A DNA stretch of 63,350 nucleotides from a virus (IMGVR_UViG_3300020159_004055:1-63350), one strand, 5' to 3'. Positions 3,865 through 40,736 are shown, numbered from the stretch's first letter. The notes: generated by a model from the letters alone, not told the origin. Numbers and translations: made by a program.

Positions 3865-3872
3865 GATATATA
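3865..3872 (+). promoter_or_regulatory. GATATATA putative phage late promoter
   Basis: Motif recurring upstream of many genes; here before ATG 3901. Confidence 0.6.
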
Positions 3873-9912: not shown

Positions 9913-12900
9913 ATGGCAGATAGACATTTAAAGTTTTTTGATAAGAAGGGACTTCCACTTAATTTTGAATATGTTGGTGCTGAGGTTTCGTACCCTTTGA
10001 ATTTAGTTTTTAATTACGAAACGAGTTCGAACAATTCTACACCCACAGCCGGGAAAATATCTTTCTTTGATTTAGGTAGCAATGTCATTTATTTGAATAT
10101 TCTTGACATGAACGGCCTGAATATAACAAACTGGGCTCAATCTGTTAATGATAGCTTAATTCAGGGAGGTAAGATTTCTCTAAAAATGAATGTGATCCCA
10201 GCAATTGTTGTTACTGCTGAGATCTCTTCAGTTTCTATCTCTTCCGGAATAATAACTTTAAATCTGGTTAGGTTTGTTGGACCTACCTCCATTTCAAACG
10301 GAAACGTTACATACTGTGAAACTATCACGCAGGATTTACCCGGCGGATATTTTAGAGGTAATATCTATTTTGATCCTGTTTCTGCTGGTCTTTATGAGAA
10401 CGAACAGATTTTTATTGTCCAACAATTTAAGGATACTGCCACAAATTCCCAATTTATTGGATATCCACACACGGGAGTAACTGGTGCCGCCGGAAATCCT
10501 TTATGGAGAACCAGATGGGAGGATGATACTTACGGTAACGTTGATGTTAGCAACATCATTTTTACTTACAAAATTGAAGAAAATGATCCCGACATTGGTG
10601 GAGATCCTTCTATAACAAATTACCAGAATATAGCCATTCCAGTAGTTCAGGATCTCAACGACTATTATGCTGGCGGGTATATCAACACTCTTGAAGCTTC
10701 AACACCCTCTAGGGCTCTTCAAGTAAATGTTGCTATCAACGGACCAGAACAGGGAGCAGAAGTTTATCAAAGAAGACTTATCATTGAAGATATAACTTCT
10801 ACTACTACAAAGATCGCAGAAATAGACTTTTATGGACAAATAATAGGATCCGATGAAAGACTTGATGTTTTAACACGAAATTTAGGCAGGGCTTTTCTGG
10901 CGGAAGACTCTACAATTTTAAGAACACATGATCCAAGTGAGCCCCTTCCTAACTACATAGAAATAAACGAAAAAAGGAAAGAGTTAATGGTAGCGGGGGA
11001 AGAAATTTTCCCTTATATCGGAAGCTATAAAGGCCTTATAGGAGCTTTAAAGTTCTTTGGATACCAAGACCTTAGAATTAAAGAATATTGGCTTAATCTT
11101 AATTATAACCAGGTAAGCTTAACCCCTCTACAAGAGACCCAACAATTTTTAAATAGGTACACAAATACTGCGTCCCCAAACCAGACTATTTTAATTGCCG
11201 ATGTTCTTGATAATGAAAATTCCGGAAAGTATAGATTAGAGCAAACGTACGGACCAAACTCTAGTGGTGAGTATGTTCTAGATGTTTCCTCCGAGAATAC
11301 GCTGGTTCCTTCAAGAACATACAAGAAAACCTCTTTATTCGGACTATACTATGATATAAACACAACCTCAGCCCTCACTGATGAGTTTGGTTACCCAATT
11401 ACTCCGGAAGCTTTCGCTTTTACGCAGGAAGAGGTTTTAGTTAAATTATTTGCACTCAAACAAAGATTGAAGCAATCTTATTTGCCTTTGAATGCAAGAA
11501 TCATTGACATAACAGGGGAGGGAGTTTATTATAACGTTTACAACACAAAATCTTGGACAGACACAGTAGACCGTAGTGATGTTGAATCTGGAAATAACAT
11601 AAGCTTCAAGACTAATCCAGATTTCGGGTTTATAGAAGATTTAAGAGCTTTCGGAACCAGAACTACTCCTATTTCTATTCAAGCTCCTATGAACTACTTT
11701 AACGTTGAAGATATTGACGTTTCTGTAGTTGGAGGTACCGGCGATGCATTTTTATTTTCCTCGTCGACCCGGTATAATGCAAGCTTGGAATTGACACGAG
11801 GAAAAAGATATGACTTTTCTTTATTGACTTCGGGCTTTGATTTTTACATAACCCAGGATATTAATCTGACACAGGTTGATCCGAATGGTGTGACTGGAAA
11901 TGGAGCAACTGGGGGAACACTAACATTCGACGTTACTCCACAGGCAACTGGTCCTTACTACTATTACTCTTCTGTTAATACATCAAAACTAAATGGAACA
12001 ATAACTTTCGTTGATGCCTCAATTTCAGATTTTGGTAATATCGTTGCTCCACTACAAAATGGGCAGAATTATACAGCTTCTCAGAATCTTTCGATGATCG
12101 AGGCAATCAATAATTTCTATGAGCTCAAGATGGATGGCGATATCATTAATTTAGGAGACAATATTGGACTGCCTGAGGGTGGAGTACCTGTTGGTATGCC
12201 GGTCGTTTTGGAATTGGATGTTGACACCTGGGATTGGGACGAAATGGGAATGTCCTGGGACTCTATGGTTTTACCACAATTCTTAAGCAACCAAAGTGCA
12301 CTTACTTGGCAAACTATTGACTTTTCGGCATATAATGAAATTGAGTGGGTTTTAGAAAAATCGCAAAATCAACCAGGATCTGGATATTACTTTTCGCATA
12401 GAGGATATGCAATTGATTTTTTCAGACTTGCCCATTTCCTACCTTACACTGGAGAATATGATGTTACTTGTTATCTCTATGATGCCTTCAATTTCAAAAA
12501 CAGAAAAATATCAAAATCTGCAATTACGGTTTCTCCAAGAACCATTCAAATAGATGCTTGGACTAGATACAGAGAAAATGAGATTTATCTATGGGACCAA
12601 ACTGTCAGGGATTGGGATTCTTATGAATCCATTTGGGAAGCTCCAGCTGAAGGAAAAACAATCAATGAGCTGACCAAGCAGATCCCTGAAGCAATTTTAG
12701 ATTTTGCTATTTATGGGAATAACTCTATCGATGGCCAGCAATTAGAAGTTAAGATGGATGTTGATTCTATCGGTGCATCCGGTAACGTTTCAATCACACA
12801 AAACATACTCGACGTATCTAAAATTTACTCCCTTTTGATATCTGGTAGTCAATATGGATACGCTCAAGTACACACCACTCAACCACATGGGTTTCAAAAT

Positions 12901-13929
12901 GGTTCCCAGGTTTACATTTCGGGATCCATCCCAGACTTGAATAAATCTTGGAACATCACTATTCCTAGTGGGGCAACAGGTTACTCTTTTGAAATATCAT
13001 ATATTCTAGGGGCACAATCTGGTGTTGGTGCTACTTCCGGTTCCGGATCTATAGCGGGTGGAACGGCTTATTATGTTCTTCCTTCTACATACCCGGATCA
13101 GGTTGTTACTGGGGGTGGAAGCATTTCAGTTTCAATAAATGGAAGAGTCATAGGGGCAACAGCATCTGGATCCAATCTACAATCTACAGCAAACTCTATT
13201 ATACAGGAGATTAATTCGGTAACTACACAGCCTGACTACTTTGCTCAAACGTTTGATCCAGAGGCAGACCCGGTCCTCATAAATCTAGTTGCTGACACAT
13301 CAACGGGGAATATTGGAAACGGTGATGTTGTAACAGTTTCACTGAGTGGATCCCTTAATTTAGTCAGTGCAGATCCATCATTAAGCGGAGGAGTAACTGG
13401 AAGTACACAATACGTTACTTGGGATCCAGCCAGCGGATCTTTGCCTGTAGAAAATCTGAAATTCTTTGGAACTAAAAATTTAGTTTGGGAGACTTTTACT
13501 GACGCTGCTTGGGATAATGCTTATGCACACGGTTGGGATGATTTTGAGTACGAAAACGGATGGCTAGGTGGGTTTGAAATACACTCTGCAAAGGTTGGCG
13601 ATAATATTAAAGTAAGCACAGGTAATGAAACTTACCCATTTCCCACTGGGGTAACTTTCGAAGCTGGAACCGGAGGCACCGGAGCATCTGCATATCTTTC
13701 TTTGGGATCTGCGGCAACTCAATTAAACGGTTCAGGAGATCCTAATATTACAAATTTTTACTACCGCGTTGTTCCTTCTACAGAAACGGCAACTTTGACC
13801 ACTTCCGGACCAACAAGCGTTTCAATTTTCCCATTTGCTGCAACCGGTGGTTCTCTGGCTGTACCGTCTTCTGTTCCGGGATCTCCACCACCTCTAGTAG
13901 TTTCATTCACAGTAGCCACCGGACCGTAA
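9913..13929 (+). CDS. Large baseplate wedge protein (gp7-like) with Trp-spaced repeats
   Basis: 1338 aa; YIGSYKGLIGALKFFGY segment; periodic W-D/E repeats; position after the gp6-like gene. Confidence 0.5.
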   Translation: MADRHLKFFDKKGLPLNFEYVGAEVSYPLNLVFNYETSSNNSTPTAGKISFFDLGSNVIYLNILDMNGLNITNWAQSVNDSLIQGGKISLKMNVIPAIVVTAEISSVSISSGIITLNLVRFVGPTSISNGNVTYCETITQDLPGGYFRGNIYFDPVSAGLYENEQIFIVQQFKDTATNSQFIGYPHTGVTGAAGNPLWRTRWEDDTYGNVDVSNIIFTYKIEENDPDIGGDPSITNYQNIAIPVVQDLNDYYAGGYINTLEASTPSRALQVNVAINGPEQGAEVYQRRLIIEDITSTTTKIAEIDFYGQIIGSDERLDVLTRNLGRAFLAEDSTILRTHDPSEPLPNYIEINEKRKELMVAGEEIFPYIGSYKGLIGALKFFGYQDLRIKEYWLNLNYNQVSLTPLQETQQFLNRYTNTASPNQTILIADVLDNENSGKYRLEQTYGPNSSGEYVLDVSSENTLVPSRTYKKTSLFGLYYDINTTSALTDEFGYPITPEAFAFTQEEVLVKLFALKQRLKQSYLPLNARIIDITGEGVYYNVYNTKSWTDTVDRSDVESGNNISFKTNPDFGFIEDLRAFGTRTTPISIQAPMNYFNVEDIDVSVVGGTGDAFLFSSSTRYNASLELTRGKRYDFSLLTSGFDFYITQDINLTQVDPNGVTGNGATGGTLTFDVTPQATGPYYYYSSVNTSKLNGTITFVDASISDFGNIVAPLQNGQNYTASQNLSMIEAINNFYELKMDGDIINLGDNIGLPEGGVPVGMPVVLELDVDTWDWDEMGMSWDSMVLPQFLSNQSALTWQTIDFSAYNEIEWVLEKSQNQPGSGYYFSHRGYAIDFFRLAHFLPYTGEYDVTCYLYDAFNFKNRKISKSAITVSPRTIQIDAWTRYRENEIYLWDQTVRDWDSYESIWEAPAEGKTINELTKQIPEAILDFAIYGNNSIDGQQLEVKMDVDSIGASGNVSITQNILDVSKIYSLLISGSQYGYAQVHTTQPHGFQNGSQVYISGSIPDLNKSWNITIPSGATGYSFEISYILGAQSGVGATSGSGSIAGGTAYYVLPSTYPDQVVTGGGSISVSINGRVIGATASGSNLQSTANSIIQEINSVTTQPDYFAQTFDPEADPVLINLVADTSTGNIGNGDVVTVSLSGSLNLVSADPSLSGGVTGSTQYVTWDPASGSLPVENLKFFGTKNLVWETFTDAAWDNAYAHGWDDFEYENGWLGGFEIHSAKVGDNIKVSTGNETYPFPTGVTFEAGTGGTGASAYLSLGSAATQLNGSGDPNITNFYYRVVPSTETATLTTSGPTSVSIFPFAATGGSLAVPSSVPGSPPPLVVSFTVATGP

Positions 13930-13943
13930 AAAGATTATAGAAT

Positions 13944-15548
13944 ATGCCTTCAACAATAACTATTTACCAATCTCAATCAGTGCTATTCACAGACACCTCC
14001 AGTGGTGGTGTTCCTCCATATTCAAGACTTTGGTCTTTCACAGGCGGTGACATCTCCAGTTCAACCGGAGCTACAGCACTAGTTACCTATTCAAATCCGG
14101 GAGCTTACACTGCTTCTCTCACTGTTACTGATGACATTGGGGTTGCTGCTTCTTATAACAGTTTAAGTGGTATTACTGTTAACCCTCCAGTAATTACTGC
14201 ATCATTTACTAATTCTCCATCCAGCTCTGTGCTAATGTCACAAACCATTTCATTCACCGATACAACTACTGGTCTCCCCGTCGGTGCAACCGGATGGTCT
14301 TGGAGCATAGGGGGAAGCGGATTTGCTACTACCCAAAATTCAAGTTTAACCTTCAACGATTGGGTTTTAGTTCCGGGATCTTCAATTGCTGACCCAGCTG
14401 GTACATCTTTATCTGCGAACGTATCTTTGCTAGCTTCAAACTCTTATACCTCAGATACTGAATCTAAAAATATTACTTTTAGTAAGGTAGGAACAACAGA
14501 AACAACGATTTTAAATAGATCTGCGCCATCCGGTGCTTATTCTAGGTACGCTGATGTGAGTTACTCTGGGGTTCTAGCTTCATCCCTTGGATATCCCACA
14601 GCTACTTATGTGTATGAAATAGATCTTGCAAGTTATGGTCACACTGTTGACCAGTTCCATTCTGATCGTGAGGTAGCATATATGGTTGTTACCGGATTAA
14701 CTGGAAAACCTGAATTTTTGCAAAATGGGGTATCAACGGTTAGCGGTTACATTCTGGTTGATGATTCTTTATATGGATCGGGTGCACCCGAGATATCTCT
14801 AGGAAGATATTTGACACCTGCATTAAATGCCAAAAAGATATTCTTTACCGACAGTGGTACCGTGGGCAACATTACAAATTTGATAACTGCAAAAAATTGG
14901 ACTACGTCTTTAATATCTTCTGTGCTGACAAACATTTACCCACAGCTTAATTCTGCACAGGGGATTTACTATGGAATAGTATACCCTGCTTCCGCCTTCA
15001 GTTCGGGTAGGAATCCTATAGTTTATTCCCCCCAGTACTTAGCTTCCTTGGGAGCGTCTGGACAAAGTATAGAAATAGGATTAGCTGTAGTTTTTGGAAC
15101 TTCTTATTCCGTAGTTTGTAATCTTAATGACAACGCGGGGGTTGGTAATGAAACTGGTGGAGACTATTACTTGATGCAGAGTGTTGGCGGTAACTTAGGT
15201 GTTGCTGCCATGCTCAATTCTGCAATAGCAGCTTCTAGTGTTCCTGGTGGCACTGCCTCTATAGAATTCGTGTCTGATTCAACCTTGAATATTTACCCCG
15301 CAAGTACCCCTGCTTCATACAGCGGACTTCGAATGGAGGTAAAAAATAGATCAATAACCTCGGTCTCTTTAAGTGATAACACAGAAACATTAAATGCAAC
15401 ATACGGCTTATCACTTTTGCCCGTCTTTTATAATTACACTGGTACAACGCAACCTTCTTGCATAGGAATGCCTCCCTACTTTAATTTGAATAATCTGGAT
15501 TACCTTTCCAATGGAACTAGCATAGTCTACGGAAACTCTATTTTCTAA
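13944..15548 (+). CDS. PKD-domain virion protein
   Basis: VLFTDTS...WSFTGG...VTYSNPGAYTASLTVTD and a second FTDTT...WSWSIG repeat. Confidence 0.7.
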   Translation: MPSTITIYQSQSVLFTDTSSGGVPPYSRLWSFTGGDISSSTGATALVTYSNPGAYTASLTVTDDIGVAASYNSLSGITVNPPVITASFTNSPSSSVLMSQTISFTDTTTGLPVGATGWSWSIGGSGFATTQNSSLTFNDWVLVPGSSIADPAGTSLSANVSLLASNSYTSDTESKNITFSKVGTTETTILNRSAPSGAYSRYADVSYSGVLASSLGYPTATYVYEIDLASYGHTVDQFHSDREVAYMVVTGLTGKPEFLQNGVSTVSGYILVDDSLYGSGAPEISLGRYLTPALNAKKIFFTDSGTVGNITNLITAKNWTTSLISSVLTNIYPQLNSAQGIYYGIVYPASAFSSGRNPIVYSPQYLASLGASGQSIEIGLAVVFGTSYSVVCNLNDNAGVGNETGGDYYLMQSVGGNLGVAAMLNSAIAASSVPGGTASIEFVSDSTLNIYPASTPASYSGLRMEVKNRSITSVSLSDNTETLNATYGLSLLPVFYNYTGTTQPSCIGMPPYFNLNNLDYLSNGTSIVYGNSIF

Positions 15549-15566
15549 CCAAAGATAAATAAACAA

Positions 15567-18500
15567 ATGCCAACTACTTTTTTATACATTAACGACGCTA
15601 AACTAGATTCATTCGGGGATGTTTGGGCTGTAGGAAGGGATCTTACTAAATACGACGGAGAATCTTGGTCATACTACGATTCGTCTAATTCAGTAGTTCC
15701 GACCAATTTACCATATTATCTAGATACTCGTTCCATTTCGATAGATAATTTTGACAATAAATGGGTTGGTTGTGCAGTCACGACATCTTTATCTCAGGAG
15801 TTAGTATTTTTTGCAAAAGGTCCACAAGCTGCAACTGGATCCAGCTGGTCTTTAAGTGATTTTGGATCTTTGTCTACAATTTCTCCCAATTGGGATGTTC
15901 CAACTATATTCGCTTCTCCTTACGCACAAGAAGTACTTGCATTTATTTCTCCGCTGAACGGCGGTGCAGGAACGGGGGGTACAGCAAATGTAGGAGTGAC
16001 CGGTGGATATCTTTGGAAATATGACATCGTTTCTGAAACTTGGTCTGAGGTTTCTCCTGGATACACATGGCCACACATCTATCAAATAAATGCGAAAGGA
16101 ATAGATGGTACTAACTTTGAATACTACTTATCTACTGATGATGGTCTACAAATTATTCCCCCGGGGGATCTAGACACACAAACGCTAGATGACGGATCAC
16201 TTTTCATACCACAACTTCGTAAATACAATTCTTACACCTCAGGCATAGGTGGTGATATAGTTTATTCGGTTTCCTTTGACGAAAATGGTAATTATTGGGC
16301 TGGAACCGAAAATGGAATATCCTATTGGGATGGCAGGAAATATTTTACATGGGACTATGGATCCGGTGTTGGTGTAACAAAGGTAGTATCAAGAAAAAAT
16401 GGACACGTATTTTTCAGAATTGGAGACCCGTTCCTCCTAAGTTCAACCTCCGTTGGTTTTTACCATTTTAATGGGGACACTTTTACTCAATTTACAAGTT
16501 CAAATTCGACTCTTCCCGATGATAGGGTTATTTCTATTCTTCTTGCAGAAGAAAAATCTGAAGCAGGAGCACTAACTGTCTATGAAAATGATCTTTGGAT
16601 AGTCTCTGGAAATTACGTGTCTCTGTTTGATTATGTTTTACCCCACGTGTATGCAACATCAAAATACGCTGGCACTACTGGATGGAACTTTGTAAATTAT
16701 TCTTATACCACAGAGGGAGGAACTACAGACACTGCAAGAATTCCAAAGGCAGACAAATATAGCTGGGTCTATCCATCGTGGAGACCTTATGAAAATAAGT
16801 ATCTTGAAAATTTACATCCCGGTTTGGATCCAAGGAATCTTTTCTTAGAAACCAATTTCAAAGATATAGCAAATGGTAGAGCTGGGACACAAGACTACTG
16901 GAATAAGGGTGAAATAGTTCCTATAGAAGAAGTTGATGTACAAAAGCTTATTCCCAATTATGAGTGGTTAACTACAACGACATCTTTTGAAGTTACATCA
17001 GTTTCTAAATATAAAAATTTGAACGTTGTAACTGGATACAGTAGCGAGTCTAGCATTACTCTAGGAGAAGTAAACAACAACAATCCTAGCTATGCCTTAA
17101 CTAATCCAAACCCAACAAATTCTGCGGGTGGAACTGGAAACGTTGGATTTGTTTCCATATATTCCGATGCCGGTCAGCTAACTTCTGTTATTCCATTTAG
17201 AGGTTTCGAGACTAAGGTCTTTAAAGCTATCCCTTCGCTAGACGATTCCTCTATTTTTGTCGTTGGTAGTTTTAAAAAATTTATAGAATTTTCGGAGTTT
17301 GTTTTCCCGTCGAATTATCCAGGCGCATCCCTAATGAATGTGACTGGAGTGACTGGTCCAACCGGAGGTCCTATTGGATTTTCGAACATAGCAGCACCCG
17401 GACTAACTTCTGGATTCCCTTATCCTTGGATTTTAAATGGTGCAACCGGTGCAACCAGCGGAATTTACTTGCCGGATACTAGCTTTTTAGAGGACCGGGA
17501 GGCAATGTTTATAGCAGAGATAGATGTTGACCTAGGAAACACTGTTAGTTATGGTGATATTGATTTTTCCCAAACAAATGCTCTTTCTAAATTTTGTTTG
17601 AAAAATTTCAGATATTTTCCGGGAGCTGATGGAAGCTATGATCCAACGGGTGTTATTGATCCGAGTTTCCCGACACCTTTATCCTTTGAGAAACTGGATC
17701 TTTCGATTTCTAAAAATTCAGTAAGAATAACAAGCAATTATTTAGGAGGGATAGCCACTCTGAAGAACGGCTGGACCGGGCAAAGTGATTTCAACAATTC
17801 ACCAGAATTCCTATTTTCAGCAAAACAATCTGCAACTGGATCATATGACTACAGTGGTTCGTATCTGGACCTCAATTCAAGTTTAGATCTCAGAAGTGGT
17901 TTTATTGTCGGATTGTCTGGAGCTGGCACGTCTTACTTAGATGGAATTACCTCTTTGATCAATGCATCAACTTATTTACTAACTGGAACTTCAACATTTG
18001 ATGTAGTTTCACCTCAGGTGACCCTATCACACCCACAGCCTGGTTATTCATTACCTTATTTCATTCTTAATGATCTAAACAGTACCGGAATAACTGCAGG
18101 GTTCATAATCAACAATGCTGGGGAAACTGGAGCTGGGTACACGACCTGGTACGACACAATAAAAGGATATAAATCGGACAATCAATATTATTTGAACTCT
18201 TTGTATACTTCTAGTGGTTCTGTTTTAACACCAGTTTCCCAAATATCCTTCTCTGGAACTACTGGAAGTGTGAACATCGTAACACTTTCTCTTAAACCAG
18301 GTGGGCTTCTGGAAACAGCCTCGACATATGAATTTTTAGATGAAAATTACGGAAGCCCATTTTTGGTTTCTTTAAGTGATCAAAGTGATACTCTTGATAA
18401 TCGTGATCAATATACCTCAATTTATTACCCATATACACCAGGTGTTACCGGAAGTGGACATGTAATTCTAAAGAGAAATGTTAGCGGAACCTACATAGAT

Positions 18501-19226
18501 GAATTTTCAGCATTCTCAATTGGAAATACTGGTGATCAATCCCAATTGAAATTCCACGTCGATGTGGATTTAGATGTTTTTGTTGCAGGATCAAATAGTG
18601 GGGGAACTGGTCCGGATAACCTTCCATATTCTTCTGCCACTGGATCTTTTGTATCTTTGCTAGAAAGCTACAAACCGGGAGTGGGTATAGATTTAGGGAA
18701 CATAATTTCCAGAGCTGGAACGGCAGCTTGGAATTGGGTTGATGTTCATAATTCCGATGCAGATCTTTTTGTTCCTCTTTTATCCATGGTCTTCATGAAC
18801 AACTACGATTCTAAAATATTTGGAAAGACCAACAACAGGTGGGTACTTACCAATTCAATAACCGGTGAAGTTCTTTTGGATGTAAGAGATGTCCAATATT
18901 TTATTTACACATTTACCCAGTCTGGCTATTATTCTATTCAAAACACAGTTGAGGATTCTGCTGGTAATGTCTACGAAATTTCTAAGCCTGCTTTTATAAA
19001 GGTTGTAAATCAGACATTCCCAAGGCCTGACGATCCTAATCCGGATTTCGTGAATTCTTATGATTATGGATTTATAGATCCTTACACCGGTTCGGGTACA
19101 CAATACAATAAGCTTGGGAAAAGCTTGTTGGAACAACAGGTTCAAATCATGCTCCAAAACGTTGTTCCATTCGGTTCTGCCCTTATCATTCCGGATAACC
19201 CGGACGCTACGTTCAACCCTCTTTAA
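15567..19226 (+). CDS. Beta-propeller-containing virion/receptor-binding protein with C-terminal PKD-like domain
   Basis: Propeller blades VYSVSFDENGNYWAGTENGISYWDG, NSTLPDDRVISI; C-terminal YTFTQSGYYSIQNTVEDSAGN. Confidence 0.6.
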   Translation: MPTTFLYINDAKLDSFGDVWAVGRDLTKYDGESWSYYDSSNSVVPTNLPYYLDTRSISIDNFDNKWVGCAVTTSLSQELVFFAKGPQAATGSSWSLSDFGSLSTISPNWDVPTIFASPYAQEVLAFISPLNGGAGTGGTANVGVTGGYLWKYDIVSETWSEVSPGYTWPHIYQINAKGIDGTNFEYYLSTDDGLQIIPPGDLDTQTLDDGSLFIPQLRKYNSYTSGIGGDIVYSVSFDENGNYWAGTENGISYWDGRKYFTWDYGSGVGVTKVVSRKNGHVFFRIGDPFLLSSTSVGFYHFNGDTFTQFTSSNSTLPDDRVISILLAEEKSEAGALTVYENDLWIVSGNYVSLFDYVLPHVYATSKYAGTTGWNFVNYSYTTEGGTTDTARIPKADKYSWVYPSWRPYENKYLENLHPGLDPRNLFLETNFKDIANGRAGTQDYWNKGEIVPIEEVDVQKLIPNYEWLTTTTSFEVTSVSKYKNLNVVTGYSSESSITLGEVNNNNPSYALTNPNPTNSAGGTGNVGFVSIYSDAGQLTSVIPFRGFETKVFKAIPSLDDSSIFVVGSFKKFIEFSEFVFPSNYPGASLMNVTGVTGPTGGPIGFSNIAAPGLTSGFPYPWILNGATGATSGIYLPDTSFLEDREAMFIAEIDVDLGNTVSYGDIDFSQTNALSKFCLKNFRYFPGADGSYDPTGVIDPSFPTPLSFEKLDLSISKNSVRITSNYLGGIATLKNGWTGQSDFNNSPEFLFSAKQSATGSYDYSGSYLDLNSSLDLRSGFIVGLSGAGTSYLDGITSLINASTYLLTGTSTFDVVSPQVTLSHPQPGYSLPYFILNDLNSTGITAGFIINNAGETGAGYTTWYDTIKGYKSDNQYYLNSLYTSSGSVLTPVSQISFSGTTGSVNIVTLSLKPGGLLETASTYEFLDENYGSPFLVSLSDQSDTLDNRDQYTSIYYPYTPGVTGSGHVILKRNVSGTYIDEFSAFSIGNTGDQSQLKFHVDVDLDVFVAGSNSGGTGPDNLPYSSATGSFVSLLESYKPGVGIDLGNIISRAGTAAWNWVDVHNSDADLFVPLLSMVFMNNYDSKIFGKTNNRWVLTNSITGEVLLDVRDVQYFIYTFTQSGYYSIQNTVEDSAGNVYEISKPAFIKVVNQTFPRPDDPNPDFVNSYDYGFIDPYTGSGTQYNKLGKSLLEQQVQIMLQNVVPFGSALIIPDNPDATFNPL

Positions 19227-19858
19227 GAATAGGAATAAAGCAATCTGAGGACTTCGTCGATCGATTCATGTCGGTGATTGTCTTTAAGATTGACTGTGTA
19301 AACGTATTTTGAGCCTTTCAATTTAGGTACCTCGTGAATTGCTGAGTCATTATTAAACTTAAGGTCTATTTGTTGGCCGTCCCCACAAAGGATCATTACC
19401 GAGTCTTTGCCAAGTCTTCCTAAAACCATACCAAGTTGTTGTTTCGTAAGGTTCTGAAATTCGTCTACAATTACAACTGAATTTTCAAAGGTTCTCCCTC
19501 TAAAATGTGTAAGTGAAACTAATTCAATTTGTTCGTCCTTTTCCATTCTTTCTAGGTGATCTACACGAGCATAAACCTTTCTCATGTTAGATCTGATCGG
19601 AACTAGCCAGGGTTCCATCTTTTCTTCTAAAGATCCTGGGAGAAATCCGTTATCTTCATTTGAAACTGTTGGTCTTGTTATGACTATTTTTTCACATTCC
19701 TTTTTAAGTAGTCTATCCAAAGCTATTTGGACTGCTAGGAGGGTTTTACCACTTCCGGCTTTTCCTGTTACAAAATTAAAAGGGTGCCTAAGAATTTCTG
19801 TTTTTGCTACCTTTTGCTCTTCGGATAGAGGAATTGAGAATTTGCTTTTTTCGGTCAT
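19223..19858 (-). CDS. phoH: PhoH-family ATPase
   Basis: GKAGSGKT, ITRPTV, GFLPGSLEEKMEPW, RGRTF, DEFQN, GDGQQID, RH motifs. Confidence 0.95.
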   Translation of the reverse strand: MTEKSKFSIPLSEEQKVAKTEILRHPFNFVTGKAGSGKTLLAVQIALDRLLKKECEKIVITRPTVSNEDNGFLPGSLEEKMEPWLVPIRSNMRKVYARVDHLERMEKDEQIELVSLTHFRGRTFENSVVIVDEFQNLTKQQLGMVLGRLGKDSVMILCGDGQQIDLKFNNDSAIHEVPKLKGSKYVYTVNLKDNHRHESIDEVLRLLYSYS

Positions 19859-20015
19859 CTATTGGTTTATTTAGGATTTGATGAAATTTTGTAAACACAA
19901 ACGCATGTTAGCGTTTGAGGCCTATGATATATCGACAATAAAGTTTTTAGTGATAAAAATGCTCTAAATATCTGAAGATTATCTTTCAGCATGTTTTGGT
20001 GTTTGAAAATGATGT

Positions 20016-20023
20016 GATATATA
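20016..20023 (+). promoter_or_regulatory. GATATATA putative late promoter
   Basis: In the divergent intergenic region, upstream of ATG 20059. Confidence 0.6.
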
Positions 20024-20058
20024 TTCCAAATTACAAAGGAAGAAAAAAAATTTAAAAA

Positions 20059-20949
20059 ATGTCAACAGTAAATACTACTTCCATTTTAGGATCAGATTCT
20101 ATCTCGGGATCGAGAACGACTATCAACTCAAACTTTTTGTTGCTTCAGAATTGGATCAATAATTACGACACTGTCTTTGGATTAGATACAGTGAACGGAA
20201 TTATAGATTTAACTGGTGCATCTACAGGAAGGGTTTCTGCTAAAACTGGAAAATTCGATTCGATCATAGTTCCAAGTGGCGGAACTGCTCTTGCTCAAAT
20301 TAACTCGTCGGGAGCTGGGTCCTTCGCTAGTTTGTCAACTACCGCACTTAGTGCAAGTGGAGTAATTACATTCGGTCCAGGATCAACTTTAACTCAATCC
20401 GGAACAACAACTTTTTCTGGAACAACAACATTGAGTGGTTCAACAACGATCAATGCTACTGCTACTTTAGGACCTTTGGGTAATTTTGCTAGCCAAAATT
20501 CTGTTGGAGCTTCTGGAGCTACTGCTGGTACACCTTTCGCTGACTCCGCAACAGGAGGTGGAGGCGGTAGAGTAACATCTATTTCGAATCCTTATGTTAT
20601 TACCGGATTAGAAGATGTCATATATGCAGCTTGTTCTGCCGGATTATATCTAAGTGTTGGAACTACTGGTGCTACTGCTGCTAATTTACCTGCTGGTTTA
20701 AGAATAACAATCATCAACACGGAGACATCTGCTGGAACTATTATGACTGGCGTACAGGGTTCAAATTACACTGGATTTAATACAATTTCTGGATATGGAC
20801 AATTCCCATCAACTGGTATTACTGTAGATGCAAACAGACCATATCAGGCTTCCCTACAACTTCAGTGGGAACCTAGGGTAGGAAAGGGAACTTCTGTCGA
20901 AGAGGGATCTTGGGTGGTTCTTTCTGCAACTAATATGTCTTGGACTTAA
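20059..20949 (+). CDS. Short fibre/baseplate appendage protein
   Basis: N-terminal SDSISGSRTTINSNF anchor-like motif; G/S/T-rich beta shaft. Confidence 0.55.
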   Translation: MSTVNTTSILGSDSISGSRTTINSNFLLLQNWINNYDTVFGLDTVNGIIDLTGASTGRVSAKTGKFDSIIVPSGGTALAQINSSGAGSFASLSTTALSASGVITFGPGSTLTQSGTTTFSGTTTLSGSTTINATATLGPLGNFASQNSVGASGATAGTPFADSATGGGGGRVTSISNPYVITGLEDVIYAACSAGLYLSVGTTGATAANLPAGLRITIINTETSAGTIMTGVQGSNYTGFNTISGYGQFPSTGITVDANRPYQASLQLQWEPRVGKGTSVEEGSWVVLSATNMSWT

Positions 20950-20966
20950 TAAAAAAATTATAATAA

Positions 20967-23180
20967 ATGGCAAAAACCCCATTTATAAGACCTCTTCAAG
21001 TACAGGGTGGAACGTTTTACGCTTTTTCATCTGCTGCGGAAGACTTGTCTTTTACATTCAATAACTCAGTCAATAAGTTTAAGTTTTCTAAATTTGCACT
21101 GCTCAATATTCCTGACATAAATTCAGGGGATCCGCTAGGAAACAGTTTGAAGCTTAATGCTCCGGACAGTGCGTTTCTAGATTTGGCAAGTGGTGCAGGA
21201 AATATTATTACCGGTAATGCCAACGTAGATTTTTCTCAAAGCTTTCAAAGCTATTGTTTGAATCTTGAGACTACTATTTTGAGTTCTGATAACTACAATT
21301 CAAACCTGAAGCAAAACATCTCTGAAAGAGTATTTTTTAAATGGCTGAAAGAACTTGGAGGAATCAGATTTCAACCTGCAGCATCTACCCAGGTAGTTTC
21401 TACACTCGATCAAAATACTGTTTTGACGGTAAACAGCCTCCCAGTAACTCAAAAGAGATATGTTGAGGGCGATCCAACAGGAGGAACTGGTTCATATGGC
21501 CTAACCGGAGGAGTAACTTATGATAGGGTAGTTCAGTATGTCGGAAACCTGGACATTGTTAATTCTGTAAAAAACAACAATAACACCTATTCGGAGGTTT
21601 ATGTTTACGTCCCAACTAAGGACGGTAACACCCCTACGGTTCTTTTCAAAAATGTGGTTGACGAAAACTATTATCCTGACTATCAATGGACGAATAATCC
21701 AGCTGATCCTTTGGATGATGAGTATTTAACTGGAAGATCTTATGACGAGCTTAACCCAAGCGGATTGACAAATTTGGCAATTTTCGACGATGACGTTTTA
21801 GGATCACCTGACGTAACCTATGAGGACACAACCAATGGGTCGACAGGGTCTGGAAACTGGTACTCTCCAAGAGACACAGCTAATACTTATTTTACTGATT
21901 CATCATTTACAGATCCCACAGCTTTAATTATTTCCAAATCTGTTTCTGGTGCAACAGCAGGAGTAGGTTTTCAACAATATGTCAGAACAAAGCTTGACTC
22001 TGTAGGTATTGATTTTGATCCTGATTCATACAAGCAAATTGTTGACGATGCATCTATCTCAACCCTTGAAGAATTCAACTCAACATCTCTTTCCCAAGAT
22101 TTTGATTTCAACTGCGTTCTTATCTATTATGATGTTTATGATCCTGCGAATCCAACAGATTCTGCAACTAATCTTTATGGAGTTCTTTTCTTAGACGATG
22201 TTCAAACTACAGGGTCTGGAATTTATTCAATACCAACATTTAAAAAATACAAACCAAACATTGTTACCAAACTCAACGGTAACTCTTATGGTCTAAAAAT
22301 CAATATCAAGTTCGACGTCGACGTCGATCAGACTGGTGTTGAGCAGGCAATAAATGACTATTCGCCATTCTCACTGACAATGTTCATGGATGCTGTGAAT
22401 GTTCTTCAGGATGCTTCAAGTACCTTAAATAACAATGCTTCTGGGTTTATTGGTTTAGAAGAAAGGGTTAGTCAGATGGAGAATTTGCTTCTGACATCAA
22501 GCACTTCTTTGTCTTTGGATAGGAGAATAAACTCATTAGAACAAACCATTGCAGCTAATCAAGCATTGTTCAACAACACCCAGTCTGTCATGGGATTAAT
22601 CAACCAGAACTATGAACTAATTAGGGCTTTGATTAACAATGAGACATCGGTTGAGGTATCATACAATCTGGACTTGATCAAGCAAGGATCGGGTGTAATC
22701 GTTGATAGATCTATTCCTAATCAATTGACAATTTCGAATTCTAATGAGGATTATAATATAGGAAATAACTTAGGCGTTGTTACTTTACAAAATTCTGCAC
22801 CTAATGTGATTCCTTTGAGGAACTTTAGTAATTACGTCAAACACGTAAATAACGGGACTCCAATTTCGTTGACATCAGACCTTGTGATTAGAATAGACGA
22901 TTCTGCTATCAATTGGAAAAAGGGACAGAGCTTTAAATTTGGATTTGGTGACCAGATTTACCCTGGGGATTTCAACATAAGCTTTTTAACAAATGCTGTT
23001 GGGAAATATCCTATAGCAAATCCAACTGGGGTTGCTTACTCTAAGCTGATTATTTCGCTAGTTGATTCGGATCTTTTAGCTTATGATTTCATGCCTGTAA
23101 TTGAGATTATATGTGTGAATGAGGAAAACCAGATTTTCCAAGTAGACATAATTGGAAAGAGTTTAACAAACAATGCTTAA
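20967..23180 (+). CDS. Hypothetical virion structural protein
   Basis: 737 aa; beta-rich with a coiled-coil segment; in the structural operon. Confidence 0.55.
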   Translation: MAKTPFIRPLQVQGGTFYAFSSAAEDLSFTFNNSVNKFKFSKFALLNIPDINSGDPLGNSLKLNAPDSAFLDLASGAGNIITGNANVDFSQSFQSYCLNLETTILSSDNYNSNLKQNISERVFFKWLKELGGIRFQPAASTQVVSTLDQNTVLTVNSLPVTQKRYVEGDPTGGTGSYGLTGGVTYDRVVQYVGNLDIVNSVKNNNNTYSEVYVYVPTKDGNTPTVLFKNVVDENYYPDYQWTNNPADPLDDEYLTGRSYDELNPSGLTNLAIFDDDVLGSPDVTYEDTTNGSTGSGNWYSPRDTANTYFTDSSFTDPTALIISKSVSGATAGVGFQQYVRTKLDSVGIDFDPDSYKQIVDDASISTLEEFNSTSLSQDFDFNCVLIYYDVYDPANPTDSATNLYGVLFLDDVQTTGSGIYSIPTFKKYKPNIVTKLNGNSYGLKINIKFDVDVDQTGVEQAINDYSPFSLTMFMDAVNVLQDASSTLNNNASGFIGLEERVSQMENLLLTSSTSLSLDRRINSLEQTIAANQALFNNTQSVMGLINQNYELIRALINNETSVEVSYNLDLIKQGSGVIVDRSIPNQLTISNSNEDYNIGNNLGVVTLQNSAPNVIPLRNFSNYVKHVNNGTPISLTSDLVIRIDDSAINWKKGQSFKFGFGDQIYPGDFNISFLTNAVGKYPIANPTGVAYSKLIISLVDSDLLAYDFMPVIEIICVNEENQIFQVDIIGKSLTNNA

Positions 23181-23200
23181 AATTTCAATAGAACAATAAA

Positions 23201-26779: not shown

Positions 26780-26813
26780 GTTTATTATATAAGAGACCGA
26801 AAACAGAATTTAG

Positions 26814-32336: not shown

Positions 32337-32381
32337 GGTCATTGGCTAGGTTGAATATATAAACAAAGTCAATGAAATAAA

Positions 32382-33884
32382 ATGCCGACCCTGAATATTC
32401 AAAGTTTAAACCTTGGTGACACGCAAGAGTCAATTATAGAGAAGGTTAACACCAATTTTGACGCCATCGTTGCAAATGGCGGAGGACCGCAAGGTCCAAA
32501 AGGAGATCAAGGCCTGCAAGGGGCTATTGGTCAAGCGGGACCTAAGGGTGATCCTGGAGAGGAGGGAACTAGAGGTACAAGATGGTTTGTTCAAAGCGTA
32601 GAACCTACTGGTGGAATTAATAACCCTATTCTTGTTGGAGATTACTGGGTTCAAACATTGGCGAACAATTCTATTTATGAATATACATCAGCAGGATGGA
32701 TAGACACGGGGTATAATTTAAAAGCAACGGAAGTTTTTGAATTAGTTACTGGTATTTCAGGTCCGACTGGTAATAAAAATGCAATCGTAATTAGCTCGCC
32801 TTCTCCCGAGTTAAATACTTTGGTTCTTAGTGATTCTGTTGCTGCTACATCAACTGTTAACCCAACTTATTCTAAACTTTTAATTTCTACTAATGGGACG
32901 AATGATTATCCCATCTTAGAATTTTCTAAAACTAACGCATCTGGTTTAGGAACACCAGCAGATTACAATAGACACCCACAATTTAGATGGCTTAGCCCTT
33001 CTGGGAGTAATTATGACCTCCTGTTTTCAGTTCCACAGGATTCATTAGAAGTTAGAAGTGGAGGTTCATTAACACTGCAATCGACTGCATCAACAATGAA
33101 CATATCTGGTAATCTTGGTGTAAATATTACGTCGGGATCTCAAATGAATCTGACTTCAGTTGGTGCTATGTCATTTTCGTCGGGATCCTCGGTAATGACT
33201 TTCACATCACAGAAGTTCAATCTGAGTTCTACTTTATTTTCACTTACCGTACCAATAAATATTACAAGTACCTCCCCAGCAGTTCTTATGAACTTCATTA
33301 ACAATGGGACAGGAGATACTTTGCTAATTTCATCATCAAGTTCTTCAACTTCATATTTCTTGTTCAGAACTATTTCTTCCGGAACGGAAAGGTTCTCTGT
33401 CAGAAACGATGGTAAAGTAACATTTAATAGGAGTGCAAATTATACAGCCGGACAAACATCCAGCAGCGCTTCCTACACCACAACTATTTCTTCAGTAACC
33501 TACAGTAGCTGGTTTTATGGACCAAACTCAGGTACTTCTGGAGGTGTGAATGTCTATTCTTTTGGCGAGGGTAATATCTCTTATGCAAATTGGACAACTT
33601 CAAATAGCAGGATTATTGGGATTCCAATGATTCCGAATGTATCTAGTTGGGGAGATTATTTAGCAAACTACGAGTCTATAACTCTACGATATTTTGCTGT
33701 AAATGGTAAACCTTTCAATGGTATTGTGTGGATGACGGGGGCTCCGCCAAGTTCCATAACACCATATGATATTTTCGCAAGCTCAGCTAGTATGGTAGAG
33801 GTAACAATTTTAAGATTGACGTCTACATCATCTTATAAAATTTACTGGCGTACTTGTTCAGGTGAATGTGGAACCTTAGTTTAA
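32382..33884 (+). CDS. Collagen-repeat tail fibre protein
   Basis: GDTQESIIEKVNTNF anchor, then GPQGPKGDQGLQGAIGQAGPKGDPGEEG. Confidence 0.75.
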   Translation: MPTLNIQSLNLGDTQESIIEKVNTNFDAIVANGGGPQGPKGDQGLQGAIGQAGPKGDPGEEGTRGTRWFVQSVEPTGGINNPILVGDYWVQTLANNSIYEYTSAGWIDTGYNLKATEVFELVTGISGPTGNKNAIVISSPSPELNTLVLSDSVAATSTVNPTYSKLLISTNGTNDYPILEFSKTNASGLGTPADYNRHPQFRWLSPSGSNYDLLFSVPQDSLEVRSGGSLTLQSTASTMNISGNLGVNITSGSQMNLTSVGAMSFSSGSSVMTFTSQKFNLSSTLFSLTVPINITSTSPAVLMNFINNGTGDTLLISSSSSSTSYFLFRTISSGTERFSVRNDGKVTFNRSANYTAGQTSSSASYTTTISSVTYSSWFYGPNSGTSGGVNVYSFGEGNISYANWTTSNSRIIGIPMIPNVSSWGDYLANYESITLRYFAVNGKPFNGIVWMTGAPPSSITPYDIFASSASMVEVTILRLTSTSSYKIYWRTCSGECGTLV

Positions 33885-33891
33885 TTATATT

Positions 33892-35466
33892 ATGGCGGAT
33901 TTCAACACAAAATATATTTTACCGGGTGACAACAAGGACATTATTCTTGATAAAATAAATTACAATTTTTATCAGGTTTTCTTTAATGGTGTCGGTGAAG
34001 AGGGTCCTGTAGGAGATGTCGGTGCGACAGGTCTTAGAGGTCAAGCTGGAAGGGACGGAAATCACGGTGCTACCGGGGAAAGAGCAGCGAATTGGTATTT
34101 TTCTTCCACAGAGCCAACTGCAGCAGAGTCCCAGCAAAATGATATTTGGATAAACACTGGGTCCACCGGTGGTCAACAGGTTTACATTTATTCGTCAGGA
34201 TCCTGGGTTTATACTGGTGAAACTTTACTTTCATCTGGCCAGTTCGCAACATTGATTGGCGCATCAGGACCGGGTGGTTCGACAGACAACAATGCCATTT
34301 ATATTAATGGCAATTCTATAAACAAATCACTAGTTCTCTCAGATGCTATAGGAACCACCGGTGATATAAATCCAAATCTTGCCAAGCTTCTAATTTCTAC
34401 CAACACGTCCAGTACTTCGGACTTTCCGTTACTTGGATTTGCTAAAACTTTCCTGACACAAACCCCAAATGGGATACCATCTTTAAAATGGAAAGAAGTT
34501 GGAGGAAACTACAAAACAGATTGGATCTTACCTGGTAATAGTATTATCCAAAGTGGCCTGACGGGAAGTTATTCTGCAACCGGGGGAACAGCAAATATTT
34601 CATCTGCAGGTATTACTAATATTACCTCTCAGTCCACCATGACTCTAACTGGGGCAACTGGTGTATCTGGAGCTTTTGCGTTTACTACAAACGGAATCTT
34701 AAATTTTACATCATCCAACGTAAATTTAAGTACCTCTGTTGCCTCCGTCGTTTTAGGAATAGGTGGAACAGCTTTTGTTTCTGCAGTTTCCACTCCTAGC
34801 ACTCCTCTTGTTTACTTGCAAGGTCCAGGAGGAGGAATGATTGTACAATCCACAGCAGATACTAGTAACCAGCTTTTGCAAGTTTTGGATGTAAATGACA
34901 AAGTTCTAATGTCTTCTGGAAGACAAAATAAATTTGTTTTTGGTGGGAGTGGTGCAACTGGTTTTAAGGAAACAAAAAGAATATCAACGACTTCTCCCGT
35001 AACTTTTCCCACATTTACCAGAGGAGCATTTACTAATAATTATTTAGATTGTGGATCTCCAACAAATGATCTTTGTCTAGTTACACCATCTTATTCTGGA
35101 TCTTCTTCAGCAGATGGTAGATCTAATAGGGTATATTTGTCGGTTGGATCGAATTATTCTTGGGCAACCGATCTAGTTTCTATTGGTCAATCAAGGGCAT
35201 TCGATTTTTATTTGAATAGCTCAACCTATTCATTCGGTGGAATAAGAGCTGTCACTGCTCAATCTGGAGGGATAAATTCAGCTCAGATAAATGATCTCGG
35301 ATCTGGGGCAACTGGATGTCAACACATTAGATTGACATTTTTTGATAGCAGTGTTGCTGCTTTCCACTATCAAGCTTTTTCTAATACAAATTATTCTTGT
35401 GGGTGGATAACCTACACAGTAGCTGAACTAGCACCAGGTGCTGGTGGTTCTAAGTCATTCTTTTAA
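33892..35466 (+). CDS. Collagen-repeat tail fibre protein, paralog of the preceding gene
   Basis: GDNKDIILDKINYNF, Gly-X-Y run, shared LVLSD...NP...KLLISTN...P.L.F.KT block. Confidence 0.75.
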   Translation: MADFNTKYILPGDNKDIILDKINYNFYQVFFNGVGEEGPVGDVGATGLRGQAGRDGNHGATGERAANWYFSSTEPTAAESQQNDIWINTGSTGGQQVYIYSSGSWVYTGETLLSSGQFATLIGASGPGGSTDNNAIYINGNSINKSLVLSDAIGTTGDINPNLAKLLISTNTSSTSDFPLLGFAKTFLTQTPNGIPSLKWKEVGGNYKTDWILPGNSIIQSGLTGSYSATGGTANISSAGITNITSQSTMTLTGATGVSGAFAFTTNGILNFTSSNVNLSTSVASVVLGIGGTAFVSAVSTPSTPLVYLQGPGGGMIVQSTADTSNQLLQVLDVNDKVLMSSGRQNKFVFGGSGATGFKETKRISTTSPVTFPTFTRGAFTNNYLDCGSPTNDLCLVTPSYSGSSSADGRSNRVYLSVGSNYSWATDLVSIGQSRAFDFYLNSSTYSFGGIRAVTAQSGGINSAQINDLGSGATGCQHIRLTFFDSSVAAFHYQAFSNTNYSCGWITYTVAELAPGAGGSKSFF

Positions 35467-40070: not shown

Positions 40071-40736
40071 TTGAAAACATTAATCGGAATCGATTTTTCA
40101 CTAAACTCCCCAGCATTTTGTGTTAGAAAAGGCAATCAATTGATTTGGGGATCATTGACAAGAAGCGAGAGGGATAGGGAATCATATATCAAAAGTTCGA
40201 AAAAACCCTATGCTGTCTTGGATCCACAAGAGGAGTTCAATTTTCTTTTTATGGATAAGAAGAAAATGCCAGATGACTATTCTGAAAAGGAGAGAATCAA
40301 GATTGATTATTTTCAGGAGCTTGTTGACATATTTTGGACATCGATAATGGAAATATGTAAAGATGAAGAGATTGTGGTTGCGATGGAGGGTCTAAGTTTT
40401 TCCTCCAATGGCAACGCTTTGATTGATATTTCTATGGCTACTGCCTTGCTAAGGAAAAAGATCGTAGACCAAACCGGAAGCTCGAATTTCCATGTATTTT
40501 CACCCACCTCTGTCAAAAAATTTGCACTCAAGGGAAATGCAAAAAAGCATGAACTTTATGAGTCTTTGGTAAATCTTGATTCTGGAGAAACCAATCTGGG
40601 CAAATTCACTAAAATTTTAGAAGACAATAAGCATGAATGGATCACCGGGGGTGGAAACGTAAATAAGCCTCTAGACGATATGATTGATGCAACTTACATA
40701 TGTCTCTATCTATATGACACAGTCGGAAAAAATTAA
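40071..40736 (+). CDS. RuvC-like Holliday junction resolvase/nuclease
   Basis: IGIDFSLNSPA, VAMEGLSF, PTSVKKFA..GNAKK, DDMIDA; likely TTG start at 40071. Confidence 0.8.
   Translation: MKTLIGIDFSLNSPAFCVRKGNQLIWGSLTRSERDRESYIKSSKKPYAVLDPQEEFNFLFMDKKKMPDDYSEKERIKIDYFQELVDIFWTSIMEICKDEEIVVAMEGLSFSSNGNALIDISMATALLRKKIVDQTGSSNFHVFSPTSVKKFALKGNAKKHELYESLVNLDSGETNLGKFTKILEDNKHEWITGGGNVNKPLDDMIDATYICLYLYDTVGKN

Follow-up and report, generated by a model that had tools for sequence, protein, structure and literature searches.

The virus sequence IMGVR_UViG_3300020159_004055:1-63350 raises the question of why a single tetrapeptide, Gly-x-[Thr/Ser]-[Gly/Ala] (written G.[TS][GA], with the dot standing for any residue), should recur throughout a block of nine consecutive tail and fiber open reading frames (ORFs), which lie on the plus strand from 9913 to 35466 with a PhoH gene as the sole opposite-strand gene in their midst. 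This stretch of 63,350 bases, hereafter the window, is a complete IMG/VR virus record estimated to represent ~23% of the genome of an uncultured giant phage. Its genes include those for T4-like tail parts, among them a gp6-like baseplate wedge (PHROG 219), the tail tube (PHROG 45) and a head-tail adaptor, together with a replication and nucleotide-metabolism module. The first-pass annotation of the window had noted the motif in unrelated virion proteins and read it as an acceptor site for a phage glycosyltransferase. The enrichment is confirmed here, and the best single explanation that we can offer for it, with a probability of about one half, is that Gly-x-Thr-Gly is the O-glycosylation acceptor of a phage-encoded enzyme that joins a GT-A domain to TPR repeats.

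The Gly-x-Thr-Gly excess in nine tail and fiber proteins

All of the example strings quoted in the first-pass annotation were found in the ORFs to which it had assigned them. When compared with composition-preserving shuffles, the nine ORFs contain 70 matches to G.[TS][GA] where 23.7–32.0 are expected: 23.7 with whole proteins shuffled, 24.6 with shuffling confined to windows of 30 amino acids (aa) and 26.6 with 15-aa windows, and under each of these three null models none of 2000 shuffles reached 70. With shuffle windows of 10, 8 and 6 aa the expectation is 28.6–32.0, and the maximum seen in 1000 shuffles was 50. Taken singly, ORFs 20059, 23201 and 32382 (named, like the others, by their first coordinate) are not significant for this loose form of the motif, with p values of 0.15, 0.15 and 0.14; the values for the individual ORFs are given in Table 1. 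The remaining ORFs of the window together hold 13 matches against 11.4 expected, which is no excess. The control ORF at 36562 has no G.T[GA] where 1.4 are expected.

The core of the motif is narrower than the form first described. When every gapped X.YZ pattern was scored without prior selection, G.TG ranked first, with 41 occurrences against 7.7 expected (z 12); G.TA (16 against 4.6) and TG.T (26 against 7.2) also exceeded expectation. A dipeptide-preserving shuffle gave an expectation of 11.6 for G.TG and a maximum of 24 in 300 shuffles, and across all null models the 41 occurrences stand against 7.5–11.6 expected, an excess of ~5-fold. The corresponding counts are 12 against 8.0 for G.SG (z 1.5), 4 against 3.6 for G.DG and 0 against 4.8 for G.NG. 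Because neither G.SG nor G.DG is enriched and G.NG does not occur, the core is taken to be Gly-x-Thr-Gly; the threonine form of the proposed motif is thus strongly enriched, whereas serine in its own right is not. The order of residues at position 3, T >> S > D > N, is not the one that generic turn propensity would usually predict. The extended logo reads [T/S]-G-[A/G]-T-[G/A]-[G/S/A/N], with charged residues depleted from -2 to +4 and Gly enriched ~2-fold three residues to either side of the motif.

The signal lies in the proteins rather than in a repeated DNA element, as had been suggested. All 41 of the underlying DNA 12-mers are distinct, and the DNA pattern GGNNNNACNGG falls in frame 0 41 times and in another frame once (41 of 42 matches in frame), with six matches on the reverse strand; codon use is near background, and a DNA repeat or codon-pair cause is ruled out. 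An artefact of composition or low complexity is ruled out as well, since the excess survives both the 6-aa-window and the dipeptide-preserving shuffles. The notion that Thr is an escape from deamidation-prone Asn-Gly is unsupported, NG outside the motif being found 53 times against 47 expected, although DG is depleted (22 against 39 expected). The proposed spread over unrelated proteins also holds, in that BLASTP finds a single paralogous pair among the nine, ORFs 32382 and 33892 (36% identity over ~300 aa), and no hidden paralogy beyond it, this being a BLASTP-level result with no profile-level search for small modules.

The sites are well conserved among relatives of this phage, and they are under selection. 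Fifteen loci orthologous to ORF 15567 were found at 46–76% identity, and eight of its 15 sites are retained in 13–15 of 15 orthologs of 47–76% identity, with x free and T and S interchangeable; six of the 11 sites of ORF 9913 are likewise retained in all eight of its orthologs, again with x variable and T and S swapped. Retention is complete for site 42 alone in ORF 13944 (6/6 orthologs), for sites 74 and 153 in ORF 20059 (10/10) and for three sites in ORF 20967 (9/9), and seven of the eight sites of ORF 26814 are kept in its sole close ortholog, L024. Over six alignments, 71% of 405 site-by-ortholog cells retain the motif, as compared with 29–55% for 12 permuted or substituted control patterns, and position 3 stays T or S in 81% of cells as against 61% for other T/S residues (p 0.01). 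In the family of ORF 33892, all 45 members (down to 37% identity) have 6–14 sites where 1.5–3.8 are expected, the excess falling in five core and nine intermediate alignment columns.

The motif is restricted to one phage clade. G.T[GA] is enriched 3.1–5.1-fold in all 11 close loci scanned and 1.2–1.7-fold in three more distant loci; left out of the close-locus scan were L013, L015, L020 and L022, which are near-duplicates of scanned loci by alignment, L014, which lies in the relative G001, and L027. G001 itself (230 kb, ~85% complete) has 45 G.TG in the syntenic fiber block where 7.6 are expected, and a 1181-aa ORF at 18270-21815 of G001, outside this block, is also rich in G.TG (8 against 1.4). 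The baseplate and fiber proteins of T4 show 6 G.TG against 5.2 expected, with no protein significant singly; the structural regions of LR756500, PTm5, PAU, MA9V-2 and Lak-A2 show no excess, and the distant relative MaF61 has 14 against 7.6 expected. These comparisons with T4 and six distant relatives rule out a generic property of fiber proteins. The best-conserved structural protein of the window, ORF 23201, has homologs of 23–32% identity in Bacteroidota jumbo phages, Sphingomonas phage PAU and huge phages, Lak among them, and those of PTm5, PAU, MaF61, MA9V-2, Lak-A2 and LR756500 contain 0–1 sites. A tblastn search with ORF 33892 gave no match among cultured phages.

Table 1. Features of the window, with G.[TS][GA] sites observed and expected under the shuffles
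Feature	Coordinates	Strand	Family or remark	Sites	Expected and p
Tail/baseplate-periphery ORF, 1338 aa	9913..13929	+	PHROG 28177	11 (9 being G.T[GA])	3.2–4.9, p 0.0005–0.0065; G.T[GA] 1.9
ORF with N-terminal PKD domain, 534 aa	13944..15548	+	Pfam PKD_4, E 4e-8	6	2.1–2.3, p ~0.02
ORF with predicted beta-propeller-like C-terminal half, 1219 aa	15567..19226	+		15	3.4–4.3; 0/2000 shuffles reach 15
PhoH-like ATPase	19223..19858	-	Pfam PhoH, E 4e-50; within fiber block		
Gly/Thr/Ser-rich ORF, 296 aa	20059..20949	+		5	2.8–2.9, p ~0.15
ORF, 737 aa	20967..23180	+		4	1.0–1.2, p 0.016–0.03
Conserved jumbo-phage structural ORF, 1192 aa	23201..26779	+	PHROG 29329	5 (all in C-terminal quarter)	2.5–2.9, p 0.11–0.15; G.T[GA] 5 against 1.5, p 0.017
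ORF, 1840 aa	26814..32336	+		8	3.3–3.6, p ~0.02
Fiber protein, 500 aa	32382..33884	+	PHROG tail-fiber families, E 4e-9	3	
Fiber protein, 524 aa	33892..35466	+	Densest in sites of the ORFs	13	3.0–3.2; 0/2000 shuffles reach 13
ORF, 851 aa	36562..39117	+	Directly upstream of tail-tube gene; sheath position by T4-like gene order only		
Tail tube	39127-39687		PHROG 45; next ORF after 36562..39117		
NTP_transferase of the RuBisCO-like protein (RLP) cassette	40684..41460	+	Pfam NTP_transferase, E 4e-11		
Ribonucleotide reductase large subunit	61380..63350	+	Pfam; truncated by window end; synteny anchor		

A candidate glycosyltransferase in the relatives

The candidate enzyme comes from related phages. 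GT2 matches were found in four of five records of one set of relatives and in two of five of another, the records without matches being the incomplete ones. The conserved protein of these relatives is 414–431 aa in length and consists of a GT2 domain followed by TPR repeats; in the 422-aa protein of relative G006 (L050:4915-6183), Pfam places GT2 at residues 42-155 and TPR at 219-276. This GT2+TPR protein was found at 51 viral loci with 60–100% identity, the 100% locus being the query's own contig, and is thus as well conserved as the orthologs of ORF 15567 or better. Among the glycosyltransferases of the PDB, the one closest to it in sequence is SunS (E 3.5e-6 and 5.8e-6), with engineered TPR proteins outscoring SunS in this search. 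The phmmer alignment to SunS (7msn, 7msp) spans the GT-A domain and the D-A-D motif and continues into the first portion of the TPR-like part, and it sets the catalytic Asp-x-Asp of the query ("iiDaDd") on that of SunS ("fIDADN"). The top NCBIfam match is also the SunS family (TIGR04195, E 1.2e-6). A weaker match (E 1e-4, residues 34-134) is to Listeria GmaR (PDB 22ao). GmaR is a flagellin O-linked N-acetylglucosamine (O-GlcNAc) transferase, and it shares with the proposed system a GT2-type catalytic domain and, as target, Ser/Thr of an exposed filament protein; it differs in that the match is weak and limited to the catalytic domain. We know of no Gly-x-Thr-Gly sequon described for GmaR.

The gene order in G006 runs polB, a dUTPase-like gene, the small (327 aa) and large (826 aa) subunits of ribonucleotide reductase, adenylate kinase, DUF2452, a 233-aa ORF, the GT2+TPR gene and a carbamoyltransferase, and that of the window is the same as far as the large subunit of ribonucleotide reductase, where the window stops. 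Because this order is shared, the GT2+TPR gene is expected ~2.4 kb past 63350, and we infer that this phage carries it beyond the window end. The T4-type late promoter TATAAATA, which has no copy in the window (4.7 expected), is present as a single copy ~25 nucleotides (nt) upstream of the GT2+TPR start in G006.

Other sugar-related genes are found in these relatives. Directly downstream of the GT2+TPR gene in G006 (L050:3143-4897, minus strand) lies a gene for a 584-aa NodU/CmcH-type carbamoyltransferase that could carbamoylate a sugar. A sugar-building island in G001 (171,553-182,700; L046) contains two GT2, an Endonuclease_NS, a Methyltransf_24, an FkbM methyltransferase, a DegT/DnrJ/EryC1 aminotransferase, a GNAT and a CmcI-type O-methyltransferase, a gene set that suggests an N-acylated, O-methylated amino-deoxy sugar.

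In the complete clade genomes compared, the motif accompanies the enzyme. Five complete genomes (250–434 kb), selected for carrying the enzyme at 62–68% identity, all have the motif in the syntenic block at 4.3–5.8-fold enrichment (G.TG observed/expected 51/9.4, 50/9.3, 43/8.9, 43/7.4 and 38/8.9). No GT2 was found in the complete motif-negative genomes PTm5, MaF61, PAU and MA9V-2, and motif-negative LR756500 has two small GT2 ORFs but no match to the GT2+TPR protein at E <= 1e-8. A further case is the cultured Tunturiibacter phage Tunturi_5, which is probably unrelated to this clade. It encodes a GT2+TPR homolog (36% identity) 3.7 kb from the tail fiber gene gp29 and adjoining a gene annotated as a nucleotidyltransferase, which has no homology to the NTP_transferase of the window. 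The 1469-aa gp29 fiber (L120:28905-33314) has 66 G.TG against 9.2 expected, and the other 20 ORFs in the first 37 kb have 0–1; its sequence includes eight collagen-like (G-[P/A]-T)n runs of 5–28 triplets. Between these runs stand globular modules of ~60–300 residues that share similar Trp-bearing segments.

Two characterized groups of enzymes bear comparison with the GT2+TPR protein. SgtA of Clostridioides difficile consists of a GT-A domain and four TPR repeats, and its gene is directly upstream of bclA3 (PMC7157674). It attaches beta-O-GlcNAc to the threonines in the Gly-Pro-Thr repeats of the bclA3 product, BclA3, and also accepts Ser. The likeness to the GT2+TPR protein is one of architecture (GT-A at the N terminus, then TPR). 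The SgtA acceptor is a Thr that precedes Gly in Gly-x-Thr triplets, with Ser tolerated, and the G.TG excess observed here fits this; cytoplasmic modification of a surface fiber protein, as in SgtA/BclA3, is proposed here as well. The two systems differ in that the SgtA substrate is a long collagen-like GPT array, whereas the sites here are mostly single tetrapeptides in predicted beta-turns of at least nine proteins, and in that sgtA stands beside its substrate gene, whereas the clade enzyme gene is distant from its putative targets and the Tunturi_5 gene is separated from gp29 by the 3.7-kb gap given above. A collagen-like G-X-Y substrate array of the BclA3 kind is lacking in the window and present in Tunturi_5 gp29.

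The enzymes of the second group, SunS, ThuS and PalS, glycosylate a Cys that lies in a Gly-Cys-Gly-Gly/Ser loop; ThuS can O-glycosylate Ser as well (PMC6405829). These are the nearest named sequence relatives of the GT2+TPR protein, and they share with the proposed system an acceptor nucleophile that sits between Gly residues of a flexible loop; they differ in that their substrates are small secreted bacteriocin peptides modified mostly on Cys. By analogy, the candidate acceptor in the window (Thr-Gly followed by G, S, A or N) resembles the acceptors of both SgtA and the SunS type. Glycosylation of virions is also said to occur in mycobacteriophages: work by Freeman and colleagues in 2023 reportedly showed phage-encoded glycosyltransferases decorating the phage's own virion proteins, the targets being C-terminal stretches of capsid and tail-tube proteins of Actinobacteria siphoviruses, with no defined tetrapeptide. 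The difference from those phages would be that the targets here are distal tail and fiber proteins of a T4-like jumbo phage and carry a defined motif. The open-access literature searched yielded no account of a sequon of this kind on the tail proteins of phages.

The mechanism that we favor is as follows. G-x-T-G, together with G-x-T-A and some G-x-S-G, would serve as acceptor of a cytoplasmic, phage-encoded protein O-glycosyltransferase of the GT-A+TPR type, which would add a sugar to the Thr hydroxyl late in infection; the acceptor Thr would lie in Gly-bracketed turns and in short collagen-like runs of the distal tail, baseplate-periphery and fiber proteins. Given conserved Gly-x-Thr-Gly sites at ~5 times expectation and, in the relatives, an enzyme of a type that adds sugars at such sites, the tail is plausibly sugar-coated. 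The enzyme would act on the G-x-T-G sites, and the sugar may function in shielding, stability or host binding. A fuller version is advanced more tentatively: that the motif is a portable sequon, read both in collagen-like runs and at the exposed beta-hairpin turns of many unrelated folds, that the whole distal tail of a clade of 230–430-kb aquatic jumbo phages is coated with a phage-made glycan, and that selection has brought the sequon into at least nine structural genes and kept it there for the life of the clade. In view of the aminotransferase, O-methyltransferase, carbamoyltransferase and NTP-transferase/RuBisCO-like genes, the glycan may be an unusual one.

If glycosylation of these sites is true, phage virion glycosylation would gain a candidate enzyme and a defined tetrapeptide sequon that can be searched for, the presence of a sugar coat on phage particles would become predictable from sequence alone, and the GT-A+TPR protein glycosyltransferases would extend from spore coats and bacteriocins to virus particles. 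A glycan coat on the fibers bears on host recognition, on resistance to proteases and grazing, on the stickiness of particles in water and on the recognition of therapeutic phages by antibodies. The hypothesis is directly testable, as Tunturi_5, which carries the enzyme-and-fiber pair, is in culture.

Several observations weigh against O-glycosylation by this enzyme. The window itself has no glycosyltransferase match (no GT2, and no GT family in the Pfam scans), so that the acceptor-site idea of the first-pass annotation draws its support, which is circumstantial, from outside the window: the clade enzyme, the synteny, the co-occurrence and Tunturi_5. Synteny is the sole ground for placing the enzyme in this phage, and the distance between the GT2+TPR gene and the fiber block in G006 and G001 is tens of kilobases. 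The GT2+TPR proteins are not members of the SunS equivalog, since their scores (27.7 bits for that of G006 and 32.9 bits for the Tunturi_5 homolog) fall far below its 350-bit cut-off. Because the enzyme-bearing genomes are essentially one clade, the co-occurrence of enzyme and motif amounts to a single evolutionary event. Tunturi_5 alone adds a further lineage, and its sites form true collagen-like repeats instead of standing in isolated turns. Four records with homologs of 24–29% identity were found, and the motif counts, made on regions of three of them (LR756502 was left out), show no excess: 1 against 1.1 in LR745206, 5 against 2.7 in LR756501, and seven sites in 12 ORFs against ~6 expected in MW202524.

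The pattern of the sites themselves adds to the points against. A promiscuous sequon-reading enzyme might select against stray sites, and depletion of the motif in non-virion proteins was not seen (1 against 3.1 expected in the window; 21 against 16.2 in the other proteins of G001). Turnover of sites at constant density, in the style of a glycan shield, does not go beyond chance in the ORF 33892 family (1.6 sites per sequence in rare columns against 1.5–3.8 expected). The excess arises mainly in positionally conserved columns, and the Gly residues of the motif are conserved no better than Gly elsewhere; both observations suit a structural turn too.

Structural setting of the sites and the rival explanations

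Where they are usable, the predicted models place the sites in turns. An AlphaFold2 model of residues 500-1055 of ORF 15567, built on a 12-sequence alignment, has a mean predicted local distance difference test score (pLDDT) of 63 and a predicted template-modeling score (pTM) of 0.72, and it shows a beta-propeller-like domain for which Foldseek returned WD40, CylK and DPP4 propellers and the phi11 receptor-binding protein. This fragment holds 12 sites, five in blocks with pLDDT >=65 and seven in segments of low confidence. Of the former five, sites 782, 841, 897 and 959 directly link two strands in the model and site 852 is in a loop; the well-modeled sites are spaced 47–62 residues apart, roughly one per predicted propeller blade, and the C-terminal half of the protein as a whole has about one site per 55 residues. 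The model of ORF 33892 (45 sequences; pLDDT 62, pTM 0.39), whose fold has no PDB match at E <= 0.001, predicts, at aa 195-300, a series of strands of 4–6 residues whose turns carry the motif, and sites 90, 222, 231, 291 and 254/257 fall between two strands. The mapping of sites rests on secondary structure and pLDDT, not on solvent exposure. Where the models are usable, then, the predicted position of the sites is in turns between beta-strands.

A second setting is formed by collagen-like sequence in the paralogous fiber pair. ORF 32382 has a run of 11 G-X-Y triplets that starts at aa 35 and contains GATG, and ORF 33892 has a run of 10 triplets with GATG at aa 35-64, after which come short predicted strands joined by motif-bearing turns. 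The runs are real but short, and the scores of the two ORFs (17.6 and 16.1 bits) do not reach the gathering threshold of Pfam Collagen PF01391 (27.2 bits). G-X-Y runs of at least four triplets hold four of the 70 sites (and 4 of the 41 G.TG), and those of at least three triplets hold 21 of the 70. As only 4/70 lie in runs of at least four triplets, collagen-like repeats account for a small minority of the sites.

The strongest rival is that the tetrapeptide is an unmodified structural micro-motif, a tight turn or beta-arc in which Thr caps the turn and the two Gly provide the backbone angles, reused by lineage-specific beta-rich tail folds such as propeller blades and short-strand fiber shafts; the glycosyltransferase of the clade would then act on the host surface, on DNA or on some other protein. 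The predicted location between two strands wherever models are usable (four of the five sites of ORF 15567 at pLDDT >=65) is what such a turn would give, the spacing in the propeller half of that ORF is like a blade signature, the lack of avoidance in other proteins needs no further account, and the strong positional conservation, with its excess in core and intermediate columns, fits a turn as well as it fits a sequon. Asn and Asp are the usual residues at this turn position, and yet they go unused here, G.NG being absent although NG outside this context is at expectation. Nor does a turn readily account for one tetrapeptide shared by nine proteins that, the one pair excepted, have no detectable homology, for the lack of excess in T4 fibers and in distant relatives of similar composition, or for a motif that also fills collagen-like runs (ORFs 32382 and 33892, Tunturi_5 gp29), which are a different structural setting. 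On balance we consider a bare structural turn to be a serious rival, though a less likely one than glycosylation.

The motif may instead mark these proteins for some other shared trans-acting factor, such as an enzyme that modifies Thr in another way (phosphorylation, for example), a fiber-assembly chaperone, or a common ligand, such as a host glycan or a metal, held by Gly-bracketed Thr loops. One short Thr-specific motif that is spread over unrelated folds, confined to a clade and conserved would be expected in this case also. However, the window yielded no candidate for such a kinase, chaperone or binding partner, the literature searched revealed no known system that uses this sequon, and we regard such a factor as improbable. 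It is least likely of all, and very doubtful, that the signal is a residue of collagen-like G-X-Y repeats with Thr at Y, which are common in bacterial and phage collagen-like fibers: the triplet runs of ORFs 32382 and 33892, the Gly enrichment three residues to either side, the TG.T excess and the gp29 runs all point that way, but the small share of sites within such runs largely refutes it for the majority, most sites being single and, in the models, placed in beta-hairpin turns of globular domains.

Other genes and sequence features

The gene slot occupied by PhoH in the fiber block varies among relatives. In L012 it holds an opposite-strand 262-aa GT2 (34 bits; cut-off 23.3 bits), a protein for which a sequence search of the PDB gave no match; GT2 matches slightly under the Pfam cut-off occupy the same slot in L018 (261 aa, 22.7 bits) and L009 (250 aa, 20.9 bits), and in G011-G014 the slot is occupied by PhoH. 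With PhoH in some relatives and GT2 or sub-threshold GT2 matches in others, this slot inside the structural operon looks exchangeable.

The first-pass annotation had suggested that the glycosyltransferase might be fed by the RLP cassette. This cassette (40684-43004) consists of the NTP_transferase, a small cupin-like ORF (a weak match) and the RuBisCO-like protein. The NTP_transferase has weak NCBIfam matches to sugar-1-phosphate nucleotidylyltransferases, all far under their cut-offs, and is a possible maker of an activated sugar. For the RuBisCO-like protein the best NCBIfam scores are 155 bits to type III RuBisCO (cut-off 497) and 126 bits to the sugar-acid enzyme OiaX (cut-off 700); as both lie far below the cut-offs, the label "RuBisCO-like protein" is the only one used, and nothing was found that connects this protein with the motif.

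Two unexpected ORFs lie within the structural region, at 3901-5070 and 5063-6460; one has S1 and OB RNA-binding domains, and the other is weakly amidoligase-like (20.3 bits; cut-off 22). At 50508-52424 a 638-aa fusion joins an RNA-ligase domain to a cytidylyltransferase-like domain. The family-B DNA polymerase ORF at 58371-59783 is just 470 aa long, with an exonuclease domain and the beginning of the polymerase domain, and its counterpart in G006 has 495 aa; a split or shortened polymerase is possible in this clade. Finally, (G)ATATATA(A), which is not over-represented in the window overall (14 matches against 11.2 expected), occurs on the plus strand at 3866, 7244, 20017, 32355, 39689, 48601, 52424 and 59822, some 20–50 nt upstream of many starts (3901, 7269, 20059, 32382, 39718, 48624, 52449 and 59878), and may be the late promoter of the clade.

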